Source: Synechococcus elongatus PCC 6301
Lineage (GTDB): Bacteria > Cyanobacteriota > Cyanobacteriia > Synechococcales > Synechococcaceae
Reading direction: 5' to 3'
NCBI RefSeq assembly: GCF_000010065.1
Contig: NC_006576.1
Coordinates: 2,040,001-2,072,000, forward strand
DNA: 32,000 nucleotides
Shown here: positions 243-13,222 of the stretch, piece by piece
How the letters are laid out: the number at the start of each line of letters is the position of its first letter
Position numbering within the stretch: position 1 is the stretch's first letter
The notes under the pieces: model-generated
Told to the model about the DNA's origin: nothing
What the model saw: the letters and a program-made list of their open reading frames with translations, nothing else
The model's database searches: none
Translations under genes and position numbers: made by a program

Positions 243-1346
243 CTAGCTTAAAACTAAGTTGTCGCGATGGACGATGGTTTCTGCACCTTCGTAGCCTAGG
301 ATTTGAACAATTTGATCACTTTGACAGCCACGGATCTGCTGCAGTTCGTGACTGTCATAGTTGACTAATCCTCGGGCAATTTCAGTGCCGTTGAGATCAC
401 AGAGCTGAACTGCATCTTGGGCTTCAAAATCTCCTTCGATCGCTTGAATTCCAGCGGCTAAAAGCGACTTACCCCCTGCTTGAATCGCTTGCACTGCACC
501 AGCATCCAGCAACAGTTTTCCAGTTGGCACGAGGCCGTGGGCAATCCAGCGTTTGCGGGCATTGACTGTTTCCGGTTGCGGCTCAAACCAAGTGCCGATC
601 GCCTCACCCGCCAAGATTTTCAGCAGATTTTCGGGCGATCGCCCTTGGGTAATCACGGTACGAACGCTCGCTTGGGTAGCAATTTTCGCTGCAGTCAACT
701 TCGTTGCCATACCGCCTGTACCCCAGCGACTGCCCTGTCCACCTGCTTGAATCGATTCCAGCTCCGAGAGGTCGTGGACAATTGTGATCGGCTTAGCATT
801 TGGATCCTGGCGAGGGTCGGCTGTGTAGAGCCGATCAACATCGGTTAGTAGGAACAGCCATTGCGCTTCCACGAGACTGGCGACTAAGGCCGACAGCGTG
901 TCATTGTCGCCAAACTTGAGTTCTTCAACAGCGACCGTGTCATTCTCGTTGACAATTGGCACGACGCCCAGCTCGAATAGTTCCTGAAAGGTTTGATAGG
1001 CATTGATGTAGCGTTGCCGCTGCGCCAGATCACCGCGCGTTAGCAGAACTTGAGCGATCGGCTGACCGAGGGTCGTAAACAGATCGTCGTAGGTGCGCAT
1101 CAAGCGACCCTGACCGACCGCTGCGATCGCCTGACGTTGGGCAATACGGCTGGGGCGATCGCGCAGCCCAAGGCGAGTGCAACCGACCCCAACCGCGCCC
1201 GAGGAGACTAGAACGACGTTGTAGCCCTGTCGGCGCAGTTGGCAAATCACTTCAACCAGCCCCGCAATCGTCGAGAGTGCCAAGCCCGGATGGTGGGGAT
1301 TGGTCAGACTGCTGGTGCCAATTTTGACCACGAGGGTCTCGGACAT
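243..1346 (-). CDS. proB: glutamate 5-kinase (proline biosynthesis) with C-terminal PUA domain
   Basis: The ORF 243..1400 contains the typical ProB N-terminus [15 protein letters not shown] from the internal ATG at 1346, the amino-acid kinase core ([48 protein letters not shown]) and a PUA-like C-terminus ([10 protein letters not shown]). The 18 codons upstream of 1346 look like non-coding read-through. Confidence 0.93.
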
Positions 1347-1483
1347 GGGAGCCACAGACCGGAAGAACGTCTCTAGTATCTTGCCTCTGTGGGGTTGCAA
1401 GCGATGACAATCACTCGGCTAGTAGCTTGCTGTTTCCCAAAAGTTGGGGCAGCTTAGGGCAGGACTGAAATGGAGTCATCCCT

Positions 1484-2125
1484 ATGTGGCGGGCGATCGC
1501 AGTGGCGAGTTTGGTGCTCACAGCTTGCGCGCCCACGCAGCAGCTTCAGGCAGAAATTCAAGAAGTCGCGACCTCACCCGTCTTTGCCAGCCAACCCAAT
1601 CAAGCAGAACAACCGGCCTCTGAGGGGACAGTTGTTATTCAAGGCGGACAAATTCGTACCGAGAGTCCCGGTAAAGCCCAAATTCAACTGAGTGATGGTC
1701 TGCAGTTTCGACTGGGTGGCAACGCCTTGTTGAAAATTGAGCCTGAACTCCAGCTCGATCGCGGTCAGATTATTGCTTGGCTGACGCCGAATCAAAAGCG
1801 CGATCGCCCCTTGCAAATCCGCACGCCAACTGCCACAGCCGCTATTCGCGGCACAACGGTCTTTATTGAGCAAACAGAGACCCAAGCTCTGATCTTGAGC
1901 TGGGAAGGACAAGTGGAGGTGCAGCTACCTTCTGGTGTGACCACACAGCTGACAAGTGGTCAATTGGTTCGCCTTCGGCCCGGCCAAACGACCTTGCCGA
2001 CGCCAGAGCGTTTGAGTCGTCCCGCAGCTGAGCAACGCTTCCAACGAAGCCTGCTGCTGAATGGTTTCGCCACGCCGATGGAAACGCTGCCCGAAATTCG
2101 CCGCCAACTATTGGGACTGTCTTAG
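1484..2125 (+). CDS. FecR-domain lipoprotein
   Basis: 213-aa ORF. The N-terminus MWRAIAVASLVLTAC carries a lipobox (L-T-A-C). The rest is beta-rich and resembles FecR-type domains (AAIRGTTVFIEQ, SWEGQVEV). Its stop lies only 3 nt before the ATG of the CHASE2 cyclase. Confidence 0.75.
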   Translation: MWRAIAVASLVLTACAPTQQLQAEIQEVATSPVFASQPNQAEQPASEGTVVIQGGQIRTESPGKAQIQLSDGLQFRLGGNALLKIEPELQLDRGQIIAWLTPNQKRDRPLQIRTPTATAAIRGTTVFIEQTETQALILSWEGQVEVQLPSGVTTQLTSGQLVRLRPGQTTLPTPERLSRPAAEQRFQRSLLLNGFATPMETLPEIRRQLLGLS

Positions 2126-2128
2126 CCC

Positions 2129-3976
2129 ATGGCGATCGCTCGGCGGTTAGGCTGGTCGCTTCCCACAGCACTGGCGGGTGCGATCGCCCTCGCCGGGTTG
2201 TTGCTCTCACCGTTGGCAATCAGTCCACTGACCCAACCGGGGCGCTGGCTAGATGCGGTGTTATTGAGTGCGGCCTTTCGGTTGCGAGGCCCCCAAGCCC
2301 CAGATCCCGCGATCGCAATCGTGGTGATCGATGAGGATTCGCTGCGACTGGGTGATCTGTTCACGGCAGCGGAGTTAGAGGCACGTCCGCCTCTGGCAGA
2401 TCTTCAAGACTGGCCCTGGCCGCGCCGCATTTACGCCTTGGCGCTCCAGCGTTTGCGAGCTGCCGGGGCGCGACGGGTCATCTTCGATATTGTTTTTGCC
2501 ACTCCTACCCGCTTTGGACCGGATGATGATCGCCGCTTTGCGGATGCGATCGCCCAAGCCGGATCGTCCGTGACGCTCGCTGGAGAACTGGAGCAGGTTG
2601 ATCGTAGTGCCGGACTTAGTCAGGCTAGCCTCGCTCAACCCATCTATGAACATCCCTTTGGCCTAGCCAATCTGATAGCAGGCGCAGATGGCAGTCTGCA
2701 AGCGATCCCCGGTCAAGACTGGCTTCAACCTTGGCAAATCTTACAAGCCCGCGATCGCCCGCCTCTATCTAACCTTGCGAGTGCAGCTCTGGGACAGGCG
2801 CCGCCGCCTCTCTCCTTAGGCATCAACTACAGCGGCCCTGAGGGAACCTATCCACGCTGGCCATTTTGGGCGTTGTTCGATCCAGAACTCTGGCAGGGAC
2901 CACTGCAGCAAGGTGCTGTCTTTCGCGATCGCGATGTTTTGATTGGGGCCAGTGCCAGCAGTCTGGGCGATCGCCATGCCACACCCTTTGCCGACAGCAT
3001 GGCCGGTGTCGAGATCCAAGCCAATGCGATCGCCACCCTCCGCAGTCAACGCGGTTTGCGATCGCTTCCGCAAGTTTGGTTATCGCTGCTATTGATCCTT
3101 GTGGCCCTGCTCCAGATCTGGGGTGTTCAGCGCTGTCCGAGTCCGCTTAGCAAAGCACTCTGGACGTTGGGGATCACGAGCGCAGTCTTACTGGCTTGCT
3201 TCATCGCCTTTTTGCAAACTTGGCTGGTGTCGCCCACCGCCTTGCTCCTTGTGCCATTGCTGGCAGGCATCGGTGACAGTGCCAACAGCGCTTGGCAAGT
3301 GCAACGGGAACGGCGATCGCTACGACGCGCCTTAGCGCTGCGGGTGTCGCCAGCCTTACTGGGTACGATTCTGGCGCAGCGGGATGCGGTAGCCAATCAG
3401 CTCGGTGGGCATAACTGCGAAGCAGTGATCCTGTTTTCGGATCTGCGTGGGTTTACGCAGTTGTCCAGCCAAATCGACTCGACTGTGTTGGTGGCGCTGC
3501 TCAATCGCTACTTTGAGGCGATGGCCCAGCCGATTCTGGCGGCGCAGGGGTTGATCGATAAATTTGTTGGCGATGCGATCATGGCGGAGTTTGGGCTGCC
3601 GCTCAGTCGGGGCACCGTGATCGAAGCCCAGGCGGCGATTCAAGCAGCCCTCGCCATGCGGCGATCGCTCGCCCGTTTGCGAGCTGAATTAGTCGCTGAA
3701 GGCTTACCACCTTTGTTTCATGGCATTGGACTGAATTTCGGGACAGTAGTCGCTGGCAATCTAGGCGCGCCCGAGCGGCTGGAATATACCGTGATTGGCG
3801 ATGCGGTTAATATCGCTGCCCGTCTGGAAAGTCTGACCAAGACACTGGGCTATGACATCATCATTTCCCAAGCGCTCTATGAGCAGGTGCAAGAGCAGGT
3901 TGAAGTGATGCCCTTGGGCCTCCAACAGCTCCGCTGGGCGATCGCAGCCGGTGTTCACCTATGCTGTCTTGGATGA
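2129..3976 (+). CDS. CHASE2 sensor / class III adenylate (or guanylate) cyclase, with an apparently frame-disrupted C-terminus
   Basis: The ORF has an N-terminal TM helix, a long extracytoplasmic CHASE2-like region and a TM bundle (VWLSLLLILVALLQIWGV, WTLGITSAVLLACFIAF, LLLVPLLAGIG). Class III cyclase motifs follow: FSDLRGFT, KFVGDAIMAEFG, GTVVAGNLG, YTVIGDAVNIAARLES. Lys (KFVGD) and Thr (EYTVIG) at the base-specifying positions suggest an adenylate cyclase (inference). The in-frame tail LQQLRWAIAAGVHLCCLG* is atypical. The +1 frame from 3936 reads GRSQPVFTYAVLDEQ... to TGA 4053..4055. Confidence 0.88.
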   Translation: MAIARRLGWSLPTALAGAIALAGLLLSPLAISPLTQPGRWLDAVLLSAAFRLRGPQAPDPAIAIVVIDEDSLRLGDLFTAAELEARPPLADLQDWPWPRRIYALALQRLRAAGARRVIFDIVFATPTRFGPDDDRRFADAIAQAGSSVTLAGELEQVDRSAGLSQASLAQPIYEHPFGLANLIAGADGSLQAIPGQDWLQPWQILQARDRPPLSNLASAALGQAPPPLSLGINYSGPEGTYPRWPFWALFDPELWQGPLQQGAVFRDRDVLIGASASSLGDRHATPFADSMAGVEIQANAIATLRSQRGLRSLPQVWLSLLLILVALLQIWGVQRCPSPLSKALWTLGITSAVLLACFIAFLQTWLVSPTALLLVPLLAGIGDSANSAWQVQRERRSLRRALALRVSPALLGTILAQRDAVANQLGGHNCEAVILFSDLRGFTQLSSQIDSTVLVALLNRYFEAMAQPILAAQGLIDKFVGDAIMAEFGLPLSRGTVIEAQAAIQAALAMRRSLARLRAELVAEGLPPLFHGIGLNFGTVVAGNLGAPERLEYTVIGDAVNIAARLESLTKTLGYDIIISQALYEQVQEQVEVMPLGLQQLRWAIAAGVHLCCLG

Positions 3977-4027
3977 GCAGGGCGGCGATGGGCAATTAGC
4001 CCGTCAGGTCCAGCAAGATTATCAGGC

Positions 4028-4396
4028 GTGGCAACAAGGGATAAATCGGACGTGATCGCTCAGGGTGGAACGCTGCTATTCCTGTTGATTGCCGGTCATT
4101 TTCTCGGTGATTTCGGACTGCAATCCGATACGATGGCGCGCGAAAAATCGCGTCATTCCACCACACCCCTCCAAAAAAGTGTCCCTTGGTATTGGTGGCT
4201 TTCAGCTCACACATTGATCCATGGTGGGATTGTCACACTTCTGACGGGCTCAGGCTTGCTGGGCATGATTGAGGTGGGAATTCATGCGATCGCAGATTGG
4301 CTGAAGTGTGAGAACCGCACGACACTCCTGCAGGATCAAATTCTGCACTTGCTGACGAAATTGGGTTTTTGGTTGTGGCTGCTGCAGACCATGTAG
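4028..4396 (+). CDS. DUF3307-like small integral membrane protein
   Basis: 122-aa ORF with no ATG start (GTG 4028; alternative GTG 4052). The motif AGHFLGDFGLQSDTMAREK followed by hydrophobic helices (WYWWLSAHTLIHGGIVTLL, GLLGMIEVGIHAIADW) resembles the H-x-x-x-DF-x-x-Q signature I associate with DUF3307. GTG 4052..4054 overlaps the TGA 4053..4055 that ends the frame-restored cyclase. Confidence 0.6.
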   Translation: MATRDKSDVIAQGGTLLFLLIAGHFLGDFGLQSDTMAREKSRHSTTPLQKSVPWYWWLSAHTLIHGGIVTLLTGSGLLGMIEVGIHAIADWLKCENRTTLLQDQILHLLTKLGFWLWLLQTM

Positions 4397-6057
4397 AACC
4401 AGCGATCGCGCCTGATCGATCTGAGGCGAAGGCCACAGCAACCCTACTGGAGCGACTGCTCGCGATCGGCACTGCCCTTTCTGCTTGCCGAGATCCCGAT
4501 CAGTTACTGAGCTTGATTTTGCAGAGTAGCCGGGATCTGACCTGCAGTGACGGTGGCAGTTTGTACCTCGTTGATCGCAGTGATCCGCAGCAGCCTTGGC
4601 TGCGCTTCCAAATTTTCCAGAGCGACAGCTTGCCCAGTTCCCTTGAAGCCCCGCCACCGCTACCCCTCGATCGCCATAGTTTGGCGGGCTATGTGGCAGC
4701 GACCGGCGAAACCCTGAATCTGGCCGATGTTTATGCTTTGGACGGGCAACAACCGTTTCAGTTCAACGCCAGCTTCGACCAGCGGTTGAACTACCGCACC
4801 TGCTCGATGTTAGTGCTGCCGATGTGCGATCAAACCGGCAGTGTGATCGGGGTGATCCAACTGGTCAATCGCAAACGCCGGGCAGATCTGAAGCTGACGG
4901 CGGCGATCGCCTCAGAAGAAACCCAGCCCTACAGTGCGGCTGAAGAAGCACTCTTACGATCACTAGCCGGTCAAGCCGCGATCGCAATCGAACGAACCCT
5001 GTTGCAGCGCAGTATTGAAAATCTGTTTGAGGGCTTTATCTGCGCCTCGATCAAGATCATCGAATCCCGCGATCCCTGCACGATGGGTCATTCCGAGTGG
5101 GTGGCGCAACTCTCTGTTCGCTTGGCTGAACAAGTGCATGCCGTCGATCACGGTGCGTTAGCGGCTTATCAATTCAGCAATGCCCAACTGCAAGAGCTGC
5201 ACTACGCCTCACTGCTCCATGACTTTGGCAAAGTGGGGGTTCCTGAGGAGATTCTCAACAAGTCGCATAAGCTGCATCCAACTGAGCAACAGGGGCTGAA
5301 CTACCGACTGCAACTACTGCAGCAGCAACTGCAACTGGAGCAAGCCCGTCGTTGGCTGGCTCCAACCCTGACGGAGGCGATGCAACGGGCTGGGCTAGGG
5401 CATCCTCTGGACTGTATCTGGTGTCGGCAGTTTGGCAATTTAGCTGACCTAGAGGTCACGATCGCCCGACTCCAACAGGCACGATCGCTGCTGCAGGATC
5501 TCAATCAGCCACAAATTTTGGCAACCCCCGCCTATCGCGATCGCTTAGCGGAGGTGGAAGCGGAATTAGCCTGGCTGGCGTCCCTGCAGGTCATGGACTG
5601 GGATGGTCAGATGCGATCGCTGCTCGCGCCTGCAGAAGTGGAGAAATTACTGATTCCGAAGGGGAGTCTCACGCAGCAGGAGCGCTTGGCGATCGAGTCA
5701 CACGTTCAGCACACCTTCGCTTTTTTACAGGAGATCCCTTGGACGGGACCCTTAGCGCAGGTGCCGCATATTGCCCATGCCCACCACGAGCGCTTGGACG
5801 GTAGTGGCTATCCCCTCGGATTAGAACAGGCACAAATTCCAATGCAGGCGCAAATTATGGCGGTTGCTGATGTTTATGATGCGCTGACGGCTAGCGATCG
5901 CCCCTACAAACGCCGCGTTCCGATTGAAAAAGCGCTGCAAATTCTAGAGTGGGAAGCCCGCGATCGCAAACTGAATGATCAGTTGGTTCAACTCTTTCGG
6001 CAGCAGCAAATCTTCCAAATTCTTGGCCATCAGCTTCAGTCTGAAGACAGTGTCTAA
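4369..6057 (+). CDS. GAF domain / HD-GYP domain cyclic-di-nucleotide phosphodiesterase
   Basis: N-terminal GAF-like region (LLSLILQSSRDLTCSDGGSLYLVD ... CSMLVLPMCDQTGSVIGVIQLVNRK). HD-GYP motifs are present: GHSEWVAQLS, LLHDFGKVGVPEEILNK, HHERLDGSGYPLGL, AVADVYDALTASDRPYK. The start is non-ATG (TTG 4369 or GTG 4375) and overlaps the preceding ORF. Confidence 0.88.
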   Translation: MVVAAADHVEPAIAPDRSEAKATATLLERLLAIGTALSACRDPDQLLSLILQSSRDLTCSDGGSLYLVDRSDPQQPWLRFQIFQSDSLPSSLEAPPPLPLDRHSLAGYVAATGETLNLADVYALDGQQPFQFNASFDQRLNYRTCSMLVLPMCDQTGSVIGVIQLVNRKRRADLKLTAAIASEETQPYSAAEEALLRSLAGQAAIAIERTLLQRSIENLFEGFICASIKIIESRDPCTMGHSEWVAQLSVRLAEQVHAVDHGALAAYQFSNAQLQELHYASLLHDFGKVGVPEEILNKSHKLHPTEQQGLNYRLQLLQQQLQLEQARRWLAPTLTEAMQRAGLGHPLDCIWCRQFGNLADLEVTIARLQQARSLLQDLNQPQILATPAYRDRLAEVEAELAWLASLQVMDWDGQMRSLLAPAEVEKLLIPKGSLTQQERLAIESHVQHTFAFLQEIPWTGPLAQVPHIAHAHHERLDGSGYPLGLEQAQIPMQAQIMAVADVYDALTASDRPYKRRVPIEKALQILEWEARDRKLNDQLVQLFRQQQIFQILGHQLQSEDSV

Positions 6058-6128
6058 ATAGCAATCATCTCCTCAGATTAAGGAAGAAAAGACCATTCAA
6101 AAGCAAAATTTTGGCTTGGCTGTTGTTT

Positions 6129-7781
6129 CTAGCGATCGCTCTGGGGTGAGGCTGATTGCTGACCCAGAGTTGCTGTCCAGCGCACTAAATGTCCTTTGCT
6201 ATGTTGCTTCGCATCGTAGAGGGCTGTATCTGCCGCTTGGAAAACAGTTTGTAAATCAGGATGATCAACTGGCCAAACAGCCAGACCAATACTGCTACCA
6301 ATCTCGATTTGTTGACCCTGTAGTGGAAAGACAGAGTTCAGAGCTTGCAAAATTCGCGCCCCGACTTGTTTGCCGATCGCTTCTGCCAATTCAACACTGC
6401 AAGGCAAAATCACTAGAAACTCATCACCACCCGTACGCGCTGCCAGCTCATTAGCCCGAATGCAGGCATGCAGTCGAGCGGCTACTGCTTTCAGCAGCAC
6501 ATCGCCCATCGCATGACCATAGGTATCATTAATCGGCTTAAATCCATCTAAATCAATTGCCAAAATGACCAGTGACTGATCAGGTTCTAGAGATTGATAC
6601 TGTGACAGATAAGCTGCTAATCCTAAGCGGTTCTGCAAACCAGTTAACGCATCATGGTGAGCTAAGGACTCCGCCTGTTTACGCGCTTGGCTTTGGGCTT
6701 CAGCTTGGGCATCGAGGCGCTGCACAATTCGCGAAATCTTGCCTAGCTCTCCAACCCAAGGCAGCTGATCGCGATCGCTGCGATCGCCTTTCTCCAGCCG
6801 ACTTGCCCAAGACGATAGCTGTCGTAAGGGCTTGGCAAACCAATCGGCTAGAAGCCAGGCAACTCCCACAACCGCCCCACTACTGAGCAGTGTGAACAGA
6901 ATGATGTCGCGCTGCAGTTGGTGCGCTGGTGCATAGGCAACAGCGATCGGTTGACGGGTGATCGTAATCCAACCCAGGCCGTTGTAGGTGCGATAACCCG
7001 CAGAGACGCGATAGGCGGTCATATAGTCCTGGCCATCGGGCCAACGCAGCACCTGCCAACGACTCTCTCCAGCCTTCAAAACTCTCGGCAAAATGTTTAG
7101 GGTCGCACCTTTGCCAAATTCTTGTGGCCCCAGCAAGATCGTGCGATCCGTTGCGACAACGAGCAATTCGACCCGACGATCGGCTGCGATCGGTGAAAGA
7201 ATCGTCGACTCGGCATCGCGGGCCCATTCCCAGCTGAGATGAGAGGCAAGCACGCCTGTGGGCTTGCCATCACGGTCTTGAATTGGAATTGAAATATCGA
7301 CAAATTGAATCGGCTCGCCGTTGGCTTGTCGAGGAAATTTGCTGGCAAGCAGTACGGCGTCATGAACATCACCGATGAACAGTCCTTTGATTCCATTGGC
7401 GAACACAGGGCGGCTGGTGATATTCACGCCTTCGATAATGCGATCGGTGGAAGCAATGACTTTGCCTTGACGATCGAGCAGACCCACCCAAGTAAAGACT
7501 GGCAGCTCCCGTTTAAGGCGATCGAGGAGGCGTTGAATCTCTGGACGATTGCGATCGCTCAGCAAGTCTGGAACGCTGGAGAGGGTGACGATTTCATTAG
7601 CCCTCGACCACATGCTCTGGTCGAGGAGGGTTGAGAACTGGTAGGCCGTTTCCTGCAGCGAATCCCCTGCAGCAGTCTGTGCCAGCCGCACCGTTCGCTG
7701 GCCAATCACGGTGCTGATCACCAAGCTTGACAACATCAGCAACCCACTGAAGCCGATCGCAAGTCTTGTTCGAAAATTCAT
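6129..7781 (-). CDS. Cache-like sensor / HAMP / GGDEF diguanylate cyclase
   Basis: N-terminal TM helix (LAIGFSGLLMLSSLVISTVIG), ~270-aa periplasmic region with Cache-like character, a second TM helix (IILFTLLSSGAVVGVAWLLADWF) and a HAMP-like linker. The GGDEF domain follows (HHDALTGLQNRLGL, AIDLDGFKPINDTYGH, RTGGDEFLVILP). The active-site GGDEF is intact. The I-site position reads RANE instead of RxxD. Confidence 0.9.
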   Translation of the reverse strand: MNFRTRLAIGFSGLLMLSSLVISTVIGQRTVRLAQTAAGDSLQETAYQFSTLLDQSMWSRANEIVTLSSVPDLLSDRNRPEIQRLLDRLKRELPVFTWVGLLDRQGKVIASTDRIIEGVNITSRPVFANGIKGLFIGDVHDAVLLASKFPRQANGEPIQFVDISIPIQDRDGKPTGVLASHLSWEWARDAESTILSPIAADRRVELLVVATDRTILLGPQEFGKGATLNILPRVLKAGESRWQVLRWPDGQDYMTAYRVSAGYRTYNGLGWITITRQPIAVAYAPAHQLQRDIILFTLLSSGAVVGVAWLLADWFAKPLRQLSSWASRLEKGDRSDRDQLPWVGELGKISRIVQRLDAQAEAQSQARKQAESLAHHDALTGLQNRLGLAAYLSQYQSLEPDQSLVILAIDLDGFKPINDTYGHAMGDVLLKAVAARLHACIRANELAARTGGDEFLVILPCSVELAEAIGKQVGARILQALNSVFPLQGQQIEIGSSIGLAVWPVDHPDLQTVFQAADTALYDAKQHSKGHLVRWTATLGQQSASPQSDR

Positions 7782-7875
7782 TGCTGCCTACAGCACTCAG
7801 TGGTGCTGACTTCGCTGCTTTTTCAATGCTAGATGCGGTTACACCGATACTCAAAATTGTTGCGATCGCAGACCC

Positions 7876-8607
7876 ATGTCGCCATTGCTAGAACTGCTAC
7901 TCGCCTCGGGCATTGTTGCCCTCGGAAGTCTATTGCAAGCAGCTTCGGGCTTAGGTGCAGGCCTCATTGTCGTGCCCTTACTCTCGATGCTGTCAGTCGA
8001 TTGGGTTCCGGGTCCCTGCGTCGCAGCGAGTTTGTTGCTGTCTTGGCTAATGTTTTGGCAAGGTCGGCAGGTTGTGGTACATCGGCATCTAGGAGCCATG
8101 CTGGGTGGTCTCGCAGCCGGGATTGCGATCGCCGCTAGCCTTTTGCGGCAACTGCCATTGGATGCACTGGGGCTGGTGTTTGGTGGCCTAATTGTTCTGG
8201 CTGTGTTGATCAGTCTGACGCCGGTTCGTCTGCCGATTACTCGACTTTCAGCAGGACTAACAGGAATCTCGGCTGGACTGATAGGAACCTTGGCCGGCAT
8301 CGGAGCCCCCATCCTCGCCCTGTTTTATCAGCACGAGCGAGGGCCAGCGCTGCGAGCAACGCTGGGGCTGCTCTACTTTCTCTCCAGCTTGGTCATGCTG
8401 GCAGCACTGCACAGTGTCGGGCGATTTGGCAGCTTAGAAGTGGGGCGATCGCTGCAACTCTTTCCGGGTGTGATGTTGGGCTATTGGGTTTCACCTCGGT
8501 TGGCCCATTGGCTCGATCGCGGCTATAGCCAAATAGCAGTCCTAGCGATCGCTTTGCTGTCTTCCACCGTATTGATTGGGCAGAGCCTGCTGAAGTTACA
8601 GTCCTAG
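7876..8607 (+). CDS. TauE/SafE (TSUP, DUF81) family anion exporter-like membrane protein
   Basis: 243-aa polytopic membrane ORF with the glycine-rich helices typical of the family (GSLLQAASGLGAGLIVVPLL, GTLAGIGAPILALFY). Confidence 0.8.
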   Translation: MSPLLELLLASGIVALGSLLQAASGLGAGLIVVPLLSMLSVDWVPGPCVAASLLLSWLMFWQGRQVVVHRHLGAMLGGLAAGIAIAASLLRQLPLDALGLVFGGLIVLAVLISLTPVRLPITRLSAGLTGISAGLIGTLAGIGAPILALFYQHERGPALRATLGLLYFLSSLVMLAALHSVGRFGSLEVGRSLQLFPGVMLGYWVSPRLAHWLDRGYSQIAVLAIALLSSTVLIGQSLLKLQS

Positions 8608-8672
8608 CTGCACAACAAAAAGCCCTCCAGAGGTCATGCAAACCCTCCAGAAGGCGATCGCGAGCAATCATC

Positions 8673-9095
8673 CTAAGCTTCGGAACTGGGACTCGCCGGA
8701 GTTTCAGTGTCTAACTTCAGCGAAGCCGAATTGAGGCAATAACGCTGTCCTGTAGGTTTCGGGCCATCGGGAAAGACATGTCCCAAGTGCGCATCGCAAC
8801 GGGCGCAAAGAATCTCAGTGCGCATCATCAGGAAGCTGAAATCTTTTTTGTAGGTGATCGCGGACTCATCAACCGGCGCCCAAAAGCTCGGCCAGCCAGT
8901 GCCGGAATCAAACTTGGTATCCGACCGGAACAGAGGCGCATCACAACAGATACACCGGTAGAGGCCGGGATCTTTGGTATCCCAATAGGCGCCCGTGAAA
9001 GCTCGCTCAGTCCCGTGTTTCCGAGTGACTTGAAACTGCTCAGGGGTGAGCTGGGCCCGCCACTCTTCTTCGCTTTTCCGAATTTTTTCGGTCAT
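8673..9095 (-). CDS. msrB: peptide-methionine (R)-S-oxide reductase
   Basis: 140 aa with MsrB signatures: [39 protein letters not shown], and the CxxC ... CxxC zinc motif (CICC / CARC) followed by GHVF. Confidence 0.93.
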
Positions 9096-9147
9096 GGATC
9101 AGACGTTTCCGTAGTGCCTGCGATCCTAACAACTCGTTCTGAGGAAC

Positions 9148-9294
9148 TCAGCGGTTCTTGGAGGTCAGAATGCCGGTGAACATCATCACCAAACCGCCGA
9201 CAAAAACGACGATCGCCAGTCCCCCTGCGATCCAATCCATCCAGGCTGCATCGGGCATTTCAGACATGGTTGACTGGCTCAAAACTGCTCCCAT
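9148..9294 (-). CDS. small single-pass membrane protein, hypothetical
   Basis: The C-terminal part of ORF 9148..9411 encodes one clear TM helix (WIAGGLAIVVFVGGLVMMFTGIL) followed by TSKNR. Internal ATGs at 9294, 9267 and 9258 give 36-48 aa products. The Arg/Pro-rich upstream part of the ORF looks non-coding. It lies 52 nt upstream of msrB on the same strand. Confidence 0.35.
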   Translation of the reverse strand: MGAVLSQSTMSEMPDAAWMDWIAGGLAIVVFVGGLVMMFTGILTSKNR

Positions 9295-9495
9295 GGTGCC
9301 ATTCTTGCTGGGACAGTCCAAGTCGTGAGGCTCTGGCCGGCGCGATCGCGGGTGCTCGGCGCGATGTTTCCCTAGGCCGAATAGAGCAGACACTCTGTTT
9401 TTTCGTTGCATTCCGTTAAGGACTAGCCGAGGAATGGTTTGGCGAGTAACAGGGCTCGTTAGAGTCGATCTACTTGACGCCTCGCATTTGCCAGC

Positions 9496-10899
9496 ATGGC
9501 TGCCCTGTCAACTGCCTCCTCTCTTCAGTCATTCAGCGAGCTGCTGGCTTGGGTTCGTCCTGCTCTAGAGGCGACGCCAACGGCTCGACTCCTGAGCCTA
9601 TCGCTGCCGTTACCCCGTCTTGATCCGCTGGCTGCATGGGGTGTGTTGGGTAGTAGTCGCGATCGCCACTACTACCAAGAGCGTCCCGCCACCCAAGAGG
9701 CGATCGTGGCTGTAGGGCCAGCAGCCCTGCTGGAACTGAATGGACCCCAGCGCTTTCAGCAGGCCCAGACCTTTATCAATGCCTGTCTTGCTCAGGGGCT
9801 GCGCTTACAGGCCGAAGGTGCAACTCTAGGGCCGAGTTTCTGTTGCAGTTTTAGTTTTTTTGAAGATGTTGCAGGGACAGCGCCAGCAGCTCCGGCGACG
9901 GTCTTTTTGCCACGTTGGCAGGTGCGTTGCCAAGCTGATCGCACGGTACTGACGGCCAGTTTTGCAATCGCCGATCGCGAGAGCTATCGCCAACGGCTGG
10001 AAGAAGTCTGGCAGGTCTATCAACATCTGCGGGCGATCGCCCAGCAACCGTTTCAGCTGCCGCCGCTGCGTCCCAATCGCTGGCTAGAGCAACAGAGCAG
10101 TGATCCCCAGTCCTTTCGAGCCGGTGTAGAAACGGTCTTAGCTGAGATTGCGGCCGGTCGTCTCCATAAGGGCGTCTTGGCGCGCTGTCTAGAGGCGATC
10201 GCAGAATTTGCGATCGTGCCGGAAGGCGTGCTCGATCGCCTGCGGCAGCGTTTTGCTGACTGCGCCATCTTCAGCTGCGGCGATGGTCGGGGCAGTGTTT
10301 TCCTCGGGGCAACGCCCGAACGCTTAGCGGCGGTGGAAGCGGGTCAACTGGTGACTGAGGCGCTGGCGGGTTCTGCCCCACGGGGTGAAACCATTGCGGC
10401 TGATCAAGCCCTTGGGCAGGCGCTGCAAGCCAACCCCAAGGAACTGCAAGAACATCAGCTGGTGGCGCAATTTATCCGCCAAACCCTGCAGGAACTTGGC
10501 CTTGAGCCTCACTTGAGCGATCGGCCCCAACTGCGTCGCCTGTCGAACATTCAACACCTGCACACCCCGATCGCCGCTCCACTGCCCGCTGCTCTGCCTC
10601 TACTGGATGTTGTGGCTCAGCTCCATCCCACGCCAGCCGTTGCGGGGTTACCCAAGCAGGCTGCCGAACAGGCGATTCGTCGGCTGGAACCCTTTGAGCG
10701 ATCGCTTTACGCTGCACCGGTTGGCTGGGTGGATGACCAAGGAAACGGGGAATTCTTAGTCGGGATTCGCTCGGCGTCGATTCAAGGGAATCGGGTGCGT
10801 CTCTGTGCGGGTGCCGGCATTGTGCCGGGGTCTCAACCCGATCAGGAACTCGTTGAAGTCGATCTCAAGCTCCAGGCCATGCTCGGCGCGCTGATCTGA
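9496..10899 (+). CDS. menF: isochorismate synthase (phylloquinone pathway)
   Basis: 467 aa with chorismate-binding enzyme motifs in the C-terminal half (FLGATPERL, LAGSAPRG, KELQEHQLV, LHPTPAVAGLP, ERSLYAAPVGW, GIRSA, AGAGIV). Confidence 0.88.
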   Translation: MAALSTASSLQSFSELLAWVRPALEATPTARLLSLSLPLPRLDPLAAWGVLGSSRDRHYYQERPATQEAIVAVGPAALLELNGPQRFQQAQTFINACLAQGLRLQAEGATLGPSFCCSFSFFEDVAGTAPAAPATVFLPRWQVRCQADRTVLTASFAIADRESYRQRLEEVWQVYQHLRAIAQQPFQLPPLRPNRWLEQQSSDPQSFRAGVETVLAEIAAGRLHKGVLARCLEAIAEFAIVPEGVLDRLRQRFADCAIFSCGDGRGSVFLGATPERLAAVEAGQLVTEALAGSAPRGETIAADQALGQALQANPKELQEHQLVAQFIRQTLQELGLEPHLSDRPQLRRLSNIQHLHTPIAAPLPAALPLLDVVAQLHPTPAVAGLPKQAAEQAIRRLEPFERSLYAAPVGWVDDQGNGEFLVGIRSASIQGNRVRLCAGAGIVPGSQPDQELVEVDLKLQAMLGALI

Positions 10900-10927
10900 A
10901 TCTCGTCCCATCTGAGGAGATGCACTC

Positions 10928-11332
10928 ATGACTGCCCGTCTACTCTTGGCTTACCCAACCCCCGACAGTGCTCGCCCACTTAGTCGCGAGGCGATCGTGG
11001 CGCTGCTGCAAATGGGCTTGAGTGGCCCCGATGCTGACGCCAGCGTCGAAGGACTGGATCATCCGGCTTGGATCGCGGCGGTGCATTGGGATCCCAATCA
11101 TCTGTCGCCCGCCCAGCTCGGCCAGCGGATTCTCTTGCTGCTCGAACGCCATTGCGCCCCACCCTTGTCCCAGCGGCTGGTTTTGCAAGGGGAGCGTCAA
11201 CCTAGCAGTCCTCCGCCCTACGAAGCGCTCTGGCACGTCCAAGCCTGGGTCAAACAGCCCAACGGGCTGAGCTCCCAGCAGAGTGAGTCACAGTTTTGTC
11301 TATTGGGAACGGAACTGAATCAGGAAGTCTGA
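10928..11332 (+). CDS. hypothetical protein
   Basis: 134-aa ORF preceded by a good Shine-Dalgarno sequence (GAGGAGA at 10914..10920, 7 nt before the ATG). No family recognised. Its 3' end overlaps the convergent antiporter gene by 13 nt. Confidence 0.55.
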   Translation: MTARLLLAYPTPDSARPLSREAIVALLQMGLSGPDADASVEGLDHPAWIAAVHWDPNHLSPAQLGQRILLLLERHCAPPLSQRLVLQGERQPSSPPPYEALWHVQAWVKQPNGLSSQQSESQFCLLGTELNQEV

Positions 11333-12960
11333 AGCTCAGCAACAGTCTCCACCAGAATCATGGGAACCGTGCTGACATCCAACAGCGCTTGCGAGACGGA
11401 GCCGAGGCGCATTTCGGGGCGGTGTGATTGTTCGTGCTTGCCGAGAATGATTTCGTCGGCCTGCCACTCCTGGGCACAGCGATTAATGGTTTCGGGAATC
11501 GCCCCTTCCCGCAGCCAGAACTGATAGCGAATATCAGCGAGCGATTGCTCAATCTGCCGCTGCAAGGTTTGCAACGATTGTGTGTCACTGACTTGGGCGA
11601 CGTGAAGCACGGCCACTTCTGCATCGGAACGCCGGGCCAGTTCTGCCGTTTTGAGCAACACTGCGATCGCAACGGGTGAGCTATCGACAGCCGCTAGCAA
11701 GCGGACTGGGCGATCGCGACTAACCTGGCTGGGATCTACCGGATCGCGACTGAGTAGGCGAGGGGCAAAGGTCGGAATTGCCCAAGCTCCCAAGGGCGCG
11801 GTAATTACGATCGACAGCACTGCGATCGCCAGAATGCTCTGACCTTCCGGTAGCCCTGCGGCAAGGGGAACACCCCCAATCGCGGCTTGTACCGTCGCTT
11901 TAGCCGAATTGCCAGCGAGCAGAAAACTGCGCTCCTGCCAGTTCCAGTTGCTGCCCCAAGTGGAGAGCGCCCAACCGATACTGCGACCGAGCAGCGTTCC
12001 TAGAACCAAGATCAGCAGACCTGGCAACCAGAGACTTGCCAGCGCGGTTAGGGGTAAACCCGCTCCGAGCAGAACAAACAGGGCAATTTGGGCGATCGCC
12101 CAGAGACTATCGAAGCCCTGCCGTAGCCGACGCGCTAACGGGGCATACAGCTCCACCACGAAATAACCCAAGACCATCACGGCTAAATAGCCGGAAAAAA
12201 TCGGGAGCTGCTCGGCGGCAAGGACTAAACCCAGCGCGATCGCAGCTGTGACCAACGTGTCTTGGGTCAGGGTTTGGGTCCAGTTTTGGGGACCCAGCAT
12301 GCGAACCAGCAGTCGCGCCACAACGAAGCCCAAGACGGCACCCAAGCTAACTTGCAGAAGCACTTGCAACGGCAGCAACAGCCAAGGATTGACTGGCCCC
12401 AACCCCGGTAGCGTCCAAATGTGCGCATTGCCTTGGGTCAGCAGCGCCAGCAGCAGACTAAACACCAACAGCAGCAAGACATCTGAGAGGGCGCTCCCCG
12501 TTAAGATTGCATCGGGAATGCCCTTGCGAACCCCTAGTCCCAGTTGCTTGAGCCGCAGCATGCCTGGAACGATCACTGCGGGTGATTCCGCCCCAATCAC
12601 ACACCCCAGCAGCAGCCCTGTGAGCCAGTCAAAATTCAGCAGATAATGTGCCGCGATCGCAATCACTACGGCTTCGCAGGCCGCGGGCAAAATCCCTAAA
12701 CGCAGCGCGACTGAGCCTTGCTGGACCAGCTTGTCCCGCTCTAGTCCCAGACCTGCCTTGACCAGAATGACCATCACTGCCAAGGTGCGCCAGATGCCTG
12801 CCTGGTCAAGCACTGCAGGGCTCAACCACTGACTAACCTGCGGCCCCAACACGATACCCCAGAGAATCATGCCAATTAGCGCTGGGGCACCCAACCGACG
12901 CGCGATTTGACCGGCCAAAAAGCCGCCCAATAAAATTCCAATCCAATTCGCCAACATCAC
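11320..12960 (-). CDS. Na+/H+ (cation:proton) antiporter fused to a C-terminal universal stress protein (Usp) domain
   Basis: About 400 aa of polytopic membrane domain typical of CPA-type exchangers, then a soluble tail with Usp character (VRLLAAVDSSPVAIAVLLKTAELARRSDAEVAVLHV ... DEIILGKHE ... LGSVSQALLDVSTVPMILV). The start is GTG 12960 or the adjacent ATG 12957. Confidence 0.85.
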   Translation of the reverse strand: MMLANWIGILLGGFLAGQIARRLGAPALIGMILWGIVLGPQVSQWLSPAVLDQAGIWRTLAVMVILVKAGLGLERDKLVQQGSVALRLGILPAACEAVVIAIAAHYLLNFDWLTGLLLGCVIGAESPAVIVPGMLRLKQLGLGVRKGIPDAILTGSALSDVLLLLVFSLLLALLTQGNAHIWTLPGLGPVNPWLLLPLQVLLQVSLGAVLGFVVARLLVRMLGPQNWTQTLTQDTLVTAAIALGLVLAAEQLPIFSGYLAVMVLGYFVVELYAPLARRLRQGFDSLWAIAQIALFVLLGAGLPLTALASLWLPGLLILVLGTLLGRSIGWALSTWGSNWNWQERSFLLAGNSAKATVQAAIGGVPLAAGLPEGQSILAIAVLSIVITAPLGAWAIPTFAPRLLSRDPVDPSQVSRDRPVRLLAAVDSSPVAIAVLLKTAELARRSDAEVAVLHVAQVSDTQSLQTLQRQIEQSLADIRYQFWLREGAIPETINRCAQEWQADEIILGKHEQSHRPEMRLGSVSQALLDVSTVPMILVETVAELQTS

Positions 12961-13222
12961 GCTGATTCCTTCAATTCAGCTTGCGTGTGTGGCTAGGGAA
13001 AAGCTTGAACGATGCACTCGCTACAGATCTTGCCCTAGCCAGAACTGTAGGAGCCATCAGCGATCGGGCCATGCCGAGTGCGCGGTTGAGGTGAGCTCCA
13101 TCACCCTGCTTGTAGCTTACGGGATGGCGAGGGTGTGCAGCCAGCGCAGCGGCCAGATGTTCTTCAGCCAGCCCAACGATCTCGCCTGCAATGGACGAAC
13201 TTCCAGCTAGCGATCCTGATTG

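Follow-up and report, generated by a model that had tools for sequence, protein, structure and literature searches.

The 32,000-nucleotide stretch of Synechococcus elongatus PCC 6301 analysed here (contig NC_006576.1, positions 2,040,001 to 2,072,000; hereafter the window) carries a compact cluster of genes for a FecR-domain lipoprotein, a CHASE2-domain class III cyclase, a small DUF3307 membrane protein and a GAF-HD-GYP protein, followed by a convergent GGDEF gene. We interpret this locus, with a probability of roughly 0.55, as a relay in which an envelope signal is passed on via cyclic AMP (cAMP) to the breakdown of cyclic di-GMP (c-di-GMP). Two signalling units would be involved: an envelope pair, composed of the FecR lipoprotein and the CHASE2 adenylate cyclase, and a cytoplasmic GAF-HD-GYP protein with the architecture of Tlr0485 from Thermosynechococcus vulcanus. 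A periplasmic or envelope cue would act through FecR and CHASE2 and alter the synthesis of cAMP; cAMP would bind to the GAF domain, which is of the cyclic nucleoside monophosphate (cNMP) type; and the cAMP-bound GAF domain would activate the HD-GYP domain, resulting in c-di-GMP hydrolysis. This interpretation draws on the gene order, domains and catalytic motifs of the locus and on the finding that cyclase and HD-GYP genes are repeatedly paired in other phyla as well. The step from cAMP to a GAF-HD-GYP protein is a known mechanism; the recurring pairing of CHASE2-cyclase and HD-GYP genes appears to be undescribed.

Organization of the locus

The five genes encode the PCC 6301 products BAD80091 to BAD80095, whose counterparts in S. 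elongatus PCC 7942 are ABB58226 to ABB58222 (Synpcc7942_2196 to 2192). On the forward strand, the gene for the FecR-domain lipoprotein (213 aa; BAD80091, Synpcc7942_2196 counterpart) occupies positions 1484..2125 with its TAG stop codon at 2123-2125, and the ATG of the cyclase gene (2129..4055, forward strand; counterpart of Synpcc7942_2195, 'cya2') lies at 2129, 3 nt beyond the stop at 2125. The cyclase is 641 aa long when its reading frame is restored and 615 aa as written. The DUF3307 gene (4052..4396, forward strand, stop 4394-4396; 114 aa, Synpcc7942_2194 counterpart), which in an older annotation encodes 122 aa from a GTG at 4028, starts with a GTG at 4052-4054 that overlaps the frame-restored TGA of the cyclase gene at 4053-4055 (GTGA). 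The open reading frame (ORF) of the HD-GYP protein displays a TTG at 4369 and a GTG at 4375; the public annotation starts at the latter (4375..6057, forward strand; 560 aa, syc1904_d, BAD80094, Synpcc7942_2193 counterpart), which results in a 22-nt overlap with the DUF3307 gene. The four genes are thus co-oriented with junctions of +3, -4 and -22 nt, as short or overlapping as is expected of a single operon. On the reverse strand, the gene for a dCache-transmembrane-GGDEF diguanylate cyclase (6129..7781; syc1905_c, Synpcc7942_2192 counterpart) ends at 6129, with 71 nt between this stop and that of the HD-GYP gene at 6057.

All these ORF positions and overlaps, first drawn up by a model from the letters alone (the sequence-only reading), proved correct when the window was rechecked. 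Its FecR, CHASE2, cyclase, DUF3307, GAF, HD-GYP and GGDEF domain calls were reproduced by Pfam; the HAMP domain that it placed in the GGDEF protein was not, none being reported at E <= 0.01. The window has a G+C content of approximately 56%. The cyanobacterial palindrome HIP1 (GCGATCGC) occurs 111 times within its 32 kb, several of these sites being located at or near the junctions of the cluster genes.

The FecR-like lipoprotein and the CHASE2 cyclase

The FecR-like protein combines an export signal, its N-terminus MWRAIAVASLVLTAC carrying the lipobox LTAC, with a FecR domain (Pfam FecR, 7.9e-13, 49 bits), and is encoded beside a sensor protein; it is weakly similar to the Leptospira FecR-type lipoproteins Lsa33 and LipL45. 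In the cyclase, a CHASE2 domain (Pfam, 4.5e-39, 135 bits, residues 33-328) has hydrophobic stretches on both sides, as is typical of a CHASE2 sensor, and the catalytic domain matches Pfam Guanylate_cyc at 1.7e-16 (60.8 bits versus a cut-off of 21.9 bits).

The best solved relative of this class III (IIIb-like) cyclase is CyaB of Pseudomonas aeruginosa (3r5g, 7e-36), and photoactivated adenylate cyclases are also close. Its motifs FSDLRGFT, IDKFVGD and EYTVIGDAVNIAARLES match those of CyaB and of the photoactivated cyclase bPAC residue by residue and include the adenylate-specific set of two metal-binding Asp residues, a Lys plus Asp/Thr pair for substrate specificity, and an Asn and an Arg for the transition state. 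Because the substrate-specifying positions are occupied by Lys (IDKFVGD) and Thr (EYTVIGD), the same pair as in the proven adenylate cyclases CyaB and bPAC, the enzyme is read from these residues as an adenylate cyclase, although the depositor named it 'guanylyl cyclase'; the sequence-only reading had likewise seen in it a class III cyclase making a cyclic nucleotide, probably cAMP. We consider it very improbable that the protein is instead a guanylate cyclase whose cyclic GMP (cGMP) is read by the GAF domain, so that the relay would run from cGMP to c-di-GMP. The depositor's name and the name 'cya2' in a table of randomly barcoded transposon sequencing (RB-TnSeq) data point in that direction, as do a match of the cyclase domain to 2w01 (4.7e-29), which we take to be the Synechocystis Cya2 guanylate cyclase, and matches of the GAF domain to the cGMP-binding GAF domains of PDE5 and PDE2 besides cAMP-binding ones. 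The Lys and Thr identical to those of CyaB and bPAC speak against it, together with the best GAF match, CyaB2, which binds cAMP, and with the reported activation of Tlr0485 by cAMP.

The GAF-HD-GYP protein and its known relatives

The predicted c-di-GMP phosphodiesterase is composed of a GAF domain (Pfam, 4e-13) and of an HD domain that is split into two parts, one recognized as HD (3e-9, residues 240-303) and one as HD_5 (7.8e-36, residues 418-532). The HD-GYP motifs HDFGKVGVP and HHERLDGSGYP are intact, invariant in the family alignment, and aligned to those of PmGH and V-cGAP3. Solved relatives are PmGH (4mcw, the closest, 1.6e-26), V-cGAP3 (5z7c) and the CyaB2 GAF domains (1ykd); besides PmGH, for which the match spans both GAF and HD-GYP, the best solved GAF domain is the cAMP-binding GAF-B of CyaB2 (1.1e-19), followed by those of PDE5, PDE10A and PDE2A. 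A single N-terminal GAF domain of predicted cyclic-nucleotide type followed by HD-GYP is the architecture of Tlr0485. An insert of approximately 115-130 aa (residues ~300-420), which is kept across phyla and carries an invariant CxxC (C347, C350), interrupts the HD-GYP domain; the insert is predicted to be mostly helical and may represent a redox or metal site. Proteins of this family, with 40-50% identity over the full length, are present in many cyanobacteria, in Acidobacteriota and Gemmatimonadota, and in Leptospira and other spirochaetes.

Tlr0485 is a cyanobacterial GAF-HD-GYP c-di-GMP phosphodiesterase for which activation by cAMP has been demonstrated by experiment (Enomoto et al. 2020, J Gen Appl Microbiol 66:147), and its step from cAMP via the GAF domain to c-di-GMP hydrolysis is the one that had been proposed for the window. 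The proposal that such a module had not been described is not supported, since this step was published in 2020, and related relays involving Lcd1 and Bd1971 are known. Given that the family is widespread in cyanobacteria and that Tlr0485 is the sole HD-GYP protein of its organism, we infer that the window protein is orthologous to Tlr0485 (BAC08037.1); it would then behave like Tlr0485, with the neighbouring CHASE2 cyclase as its cAMP source. The accounts of Tlr0485 consulted name neither a cyclase that feeds it nor the signal to which such a cyclase responds; here a CHASE2 cyclase and a FecR gene are located directly upstream.

Other systems share single features with the locus. In Lcd1 of Leptospira interrogans a GAF domain also reads cAMP and controls a c-di-GMP enzyme, but the protein is a GAF-GGDEF whose output is synthesis instead of hydrolysis, and the accounts consulted describe no linked cyclase gene. 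Bd1971 of Bdellovibrio unites cAMP sensing and cAMP-activated c-di-GMP breakdown in a single protein, through a CRP-type cNMP-binding domain and EAL instead of GAF and HD-GYP. PmGH of Persephonella marina shares with the window protein the GAF-HD-GYP architecture and the motifs HD...GK and HHE..DG.GYP; it differs by the absence of the insert, and its GAF ligand is not known. On the sensor side, the 'BiofilmReg' operon of Burkholderia (FecR/LysM and CHASE2 histidine kinase) has a periplasmic FecR-domain gene adjoining a CHASE2 sensor, the output of which is a histidine kinase, while in CyaD1, CyaD2 and CyaK of Sinorhizobium meliloti CHASE2 gates an adenylate cyclase output and the reader of the cAMP is the transcription factor Clr instead of a c-di-GMP enzyme.

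Recurrence of the CHASE2-cyclase/HD-GYP pairing

Gene neighbourhoods were surveyed, using profiles built in this analysis, around HD-GYP genes in 80 genomes (28 of them cyanobacterial, 10-kb flanks) and around CHASE2-cyclase genes in 80 metagenomic loci. All four genes, with their three tight junctions, were found again in L001 (a PCC 11802-like strain), L179 (PCC 7942) and L180 (a relative with 78-79% identity), with protein identities ranging from 78 to 90%. The full four-gene set, for which the sequence-only reading had suggested a survey across the cyanobacteria, is confined to the S. elongatus lineage, with no synteny beyond these close relatives. The part that does recur in other phyla is the CHASE2-cyclase/HD-GYP pair: a CHASE2-cyclase gene was found beside the HD-GYP gene at seven loci from Acidobacteriota and one from Gemmatimonadota among the 80 HD-GYP-anchored ones. 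Among the seven acidobacterial pairings, four are directly divergent, one has a PilB-like ATPase gene in between (L040), one has FHA and PP2C genes in between, and in the last one (L083) the cyclase gene is divergent, located approximately 200 nt upstream of the HD-GYP gene and cut by the contig end. Conversely, the GAF-HD-GYP family was present at three of the 80 cyclase-anchored loci, versus a rough expectation of 0.1-0.25.

FecR genes beside CHASE2 genes, noted earlier as a recurrent neighbourhood, were indeed found repeatedly, with FecR ORFs at 23 of the 80 CHASE2-cyclase loci (directly adjacent in 15) and at none of the 80 HD-GYP-anchored loci. The three-gene set without DUF3307 recurs in two metagenomic loci. 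One of these (L161) has genes for FecR, CHASE2-cyclase and GAF-HD-GYP that are co-oriented and ordered as in the window. The other one (L141, positions 4888-12427), a contig with 37% GC, encodes in a tightly packed arrangement a FecR/TbpB-like lipoprotein, a Slam-like protein with TPR repeats and an outer-membrane barrel, a CHASE2-cyclase, and a fusion protein in which a class II cAMP-phosphodiesterase-like domain (HAHLDH) is joined to GAF and HD-GYP. At L040, the ATPase between the CHASE2-cyclase and GAF-HD-GYP genes (7235-9406, reverse strand) is a PilB-like secretion ATPase with cNMP-binding and MshEN domains; the MshEN domain type has been reported to bind c-di-GMP, which makes this protein a candidate for integrating both messengers. 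In a neighbor-joining tree of the HD-GYP proteins, the cyclase-linked cases are found at at least four separate positions, and S. elongatus forms a long branch within an otherwise unlinked cyanobacterial clade. The coupling of FecR and CHASE2-cyclase to HD-GYP is lineage-specific within the cyanobacteria and recurrent in other phyla.

Based on these loci we tentatively propose, at odds well short of even, that FecR, CHASE2 adenylate cyclase and GAF-HD-GYP constitute a recurrent cassette that was assembled independently in several phyla and that would form a dedicated local pathway leading from an envelope cue to the hydrolysis of c-di-GMP, with cAMP as a private intermediate instead of a global pool. 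If so, some lineages would have added a cAMP-phosphodiesterase domain (L141) or a cNMP-binding/MshEN pilus ATPase (L040).

An accidental adjacency, caused by rearrangement in the S. elongatus lineage, appears unlikely to us; the HD-GYP protein would then read the general cAMP pool, supplied by any cyclase such as Synpcc7942_0663, or would respond to another ligand. The restriction of the four-gene arrangement to relatives of S. elongatus, the lack of linkage at the 28 other cyanobacterial loci, the presence of a second putative cAMP synthase in the genome, and the end of synteny directly downstream of the HD-GYP gene all favour such an accident. It accounts poorly for the same pairing in Acidobacteriota, Gemmatimonadota and two further contigs, which include the three-gene order and the cAMP-phosphodiesterase-like fusion, for the three matches in the cyclase-anchored set against a rough chance expectation of 0.1-0.25, and for the GTGA stop/start overlap, which is kept at 78% identity.

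In the other cyanobacteria, a CHASE2 protein kinase was found at one of the 28 HD-GYP loci. In 15 of the 28 (L008, L014-L023, L025, L027, L031 and L032), the HD-GYP gene is preceded, at a distance of 30-570 nt, by a co-oriented pterin-4a-carbinolamine dehydratase-like ORF of approximately 100 aa. The possibility that this small ORF is a divergent DUF3307 gene was rejected, as its sequence (HHPD...SYNKV) reads as pterin-4a-carbinolamine dehydratase.

Transcription of the cluster

Transcript starts had been measured in PCC 7942, not in PCC 6301, and were mapped to the window through the PCC 7942 locus (L179). The FecR-like gene has its start at window position 1461 (forward strand; PCC 7942 2275568), giving a 5' untranslated region (UTR) of 23 nt, and is monocistronic with a transcript of 684 nt (Vijayan et al. 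2011, Table S1, transcript 425). The DUF3307 and HD-GYP genes form a separate two-ORF transcript of 2079 nt with a 5' UTR of 49 nt (transcript 142), whose start at window position 3979 (forward strand; PCC 7942 2273051) still lies within the 3'-terminal part of the cyclase gene, and the GGDEF gene has its own transcript 180; for the cyclase gene no transcript is listed under standard light (Vijayan et al. 2011). The cluster transcripts are of very low abundance, with a coverage of 2.7-4.2 reads per nt in one growth condition (Vijayan et al. 2011).

A single transcription unit, as the sequence-only reading had proposed, is not what this map displays: FecR stands alone, DUF3307 and HD-GYP are transcribed separately, and the cyclase is unlisted. 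No transcript spanning all four genes is present in it, although the low coverage and the single condition leave room for inducible read-through. The map argues against one constitutive four-gene operon, and its separate transcripts, with that of the cyclase undetected, add to the case for an accidental adjacency. A promoter and terminator scan of positions 1200-8200 gave counts that were not above those of shuffled sequence and yielded no usable site, the fold of the 71-nt convergent spacer was at chance level (z = 0.05), and the transcriptome supplements of strain UTEX 2973 contained nothing under the locus tags of the cluster.

Changes specific to PCC 6301

The cyclase ORF in the window stops at 3976 (615 aa), and its +1 frame runs on through ...AGRSQPVFTYAVLDE... 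to the TGA at 4053-4055. Alignment with PCC 7942 DNA (CP000100) confirmed the frameshift suspected from the window sequence and located it at a single extra C at position 3931 (forward strand; CTCC versus CTC), present in PCC 6301 only: the 615-aa form is recorded for this strain alone, and the protein of every other S. elongatus strain is 641 aa long. The frameshift costs the cyclase approximately its last 40 residues, including the conserved ...GRSQPVxxY... strand. The catalytic domain of the window is thus incomplete, its C-terminal G(K/R)xxPVxVY strand being encoded as GRSQPVFTY in another frame, whereas in PCC 7942, the other strains and further relatives the C-terminus is intact. The frame-restored cyclase differs from that of PCC 7942 at one residue (T127S); a further mismatch at residue 602 is an artefact of restoring the frame at T3935.

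A second change affects the HD-GYP protein, in which a T at 5098 (forward strand) instead of the C of PCC 7942 replaces Arg242 by Trp in the GHSERV motif; this residue is Arg in PCC 7942, PmGH and V-cGAP3 and nearly invariant in the family. R242W could inactivate the protein or be a sequencing error, and both changes may be real lesions or errors of the assembly. Since the cyclase is truncated as sequenced, the relay may be inactive in PCC 6301.

We regard it as a serious possibility, at only slightly less than even odds, that the PCC 6301 module is decaying, the cyclase being a pseudogene and the HD-GYP protein impaired as a laboratory strain loses a pathway for environmental sensing that it does not use. 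The extra C, which truncates the cyclase ahead of its last conserved strand in PCC 6301 alone, and R242W at a nearly invariant position would fit such a loss, and reviews have noted lost behavioural traits of laboratory S. elongatus strains. As a single inserted base in a Sanger assembly of older date, the extra C could be a sequencing error. PCC 6301 and PCC 7942 differ at 15 positions over the 14 kb compared, with none in the first 1885 bases and all of them spread from 1886 to 12484 at approximately one per kb; the differences are evenly distributed and not concentrated in the cluster, so that there is no sign of locus-specific decay, and a decay hot spot at the cluster was rejected. Decay would furthermore be a matter of this one strain and leave the nature of the module unaffected.

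DUF3307 and the convergent GGDEF gene

The DUF3307 protein matches Pfam DUF3307 (1.6e-9) and the phage protein family PHROG 2470, 'membrane protein' (2e-21), and its alignment displays nine invariant residues (H16, D20, H53, H57, E74, H78, D82, D95 and H99). An AlphaFold2 model (predicted local distance difference test, pLDDT, 83) is predicted to be all-helical, and a Foldseek search of the PDB with this model gave no significant match. A word-indexed homologue search returned 8 matches only; an exhaustive profile search returned 1424 clusters, the best 150 of which were all small stand-alone proteins without informative fusions. The nearest homologues are found in unrelated settings, namely SelO/patatin and EF-hand/ParA neighbourhoods and phage-like contigs, and the one mention of the family found in the literature is in a jumbo phage paper. 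In two picocyanobacterial-type loci (L004, 1-12554; L176, 1048-5892) a DUF3307 gene is located near SIMPL, MscS channel and cNMP-binding genes, which may be inherited synteny instead of shared function; in L004 it lies inside an island with three CHASE2-cyclase and three FecR-like genes.

DUF3307 had been proposed as a fourth component of the relay. The gene was absent from all 80 HD-GYP-anchored and all 80 cyclase-anchored loci, i.e. from all 160 loci surveyed outside S. elongatus, and its mutant phenotype differs from that of its neighbours. RB-TnSeq of PCC 7942 under UV gave a fitness of -0.59 for DUF3307 mutants (adjusted p 4e-5), with little change for mutants in the cyclase (-0.08), HD-GYP (-0.08), FecR (-0.20) and GGDEF (-0.04) genes. 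As this fitness loss is seen for DUF3307 mutants alone, the protein has a role that is not common to its neighbours. The DUF3307 gene, which is co-transcribed with the HD-GYP gene, is in all likelihood a passenger or accessory specific to the lineage.

The GGDEF protein matches Pfam GGDEF at 5e-40 and dCache_1 at 3e-9 (37 bits, under the Pfam cut-off of 45 bits). Its gene, proposed to feed the c-di-GMP pool drained by the HD-GYP protein, is present at this position in PCC 7942 and PCC 6301; in L001 the gene downstream of HD-GYP encodes a short-chain dehydrogenase and in L180 an APS kinase. A convergent GGDEF neighbour was found at one of the 80 HD-GYP-anchored loci (L075), so that the adjacency is not conserved. 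Because the gene downstream of HD-GYP changes among relatives, the GGDEF gene is an unrelated, strain-variable neighbour and not a core part of the locus.

Further along the window, a fluoride riboswitch (Rfam RF01734, 45 bits, E 1.6e-9) is located at 13041-13114 on the reverse strand, upstream of a reverse-strand gene at 11320-12960 whose PCC 7942 counterpart has Na_H_Exchanger and Usp domains.

Evaluation of the proposed relay and implications

A number of observations weigh against the proposed relay. The kinship of the window protein with Tlr0485 is a putative one, deduced from the spread of the family in cyanobacteria and from Tlr0485 being the sole HD-GYP protein of its organism. The same HD-GYP family is accompanied by neither CHASE2-cyclase, FecR nor DUF3307 at any of the 28 other cyanobacterial loci, and the closest relatives of the cyclase outside the lineage (L002-L004) keep FecR and have no HD-GYP gene. 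Seven of the eight cyclase-linked loci of the HD-GYP-anchored survey belong to one acidobacterial clade, i.e. to few independent events. In PCC 7942 the transcripts are separate units and that of the cyclase is undetected under standard light; cyclase, HD-GYP and FecR mutants are nearly without UV effect compared to -0.59 for DUF3307, and the cyclase has no reported diurnal phenotype. PCC 6301 itself has a frameshift in the cyclase gene and R242W in the HD-GYP protein.

What stands of the relay as it was originally outlined is the cyclase/HD-GYP pairing, which is recurrent, and the cAMP step, which is known from Tlr0485; the single constitutive operon, the DUF3307 and GGDEF parts, and the claimed novelty of the cAMP step have fallen away.

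As a caution, the PCC 6301 copy of the module may be broken. For GAF-HD-GYP proteins, this locus and the similar ones in other phyla point to a specific candidate source of cAMP, namely a CHASE2 adenylate cyclase accompanied by a FecR-domain protein. Few bacterial sensor modules without a known ligand are as common as CHASE2 domains and their FecR companions, and the genetically tractable strain PCC 7942, with c-di-GMP hydrolysis as a read-out, would give a practical assay for the question of which ligand CHASE2 and FecR perceive.

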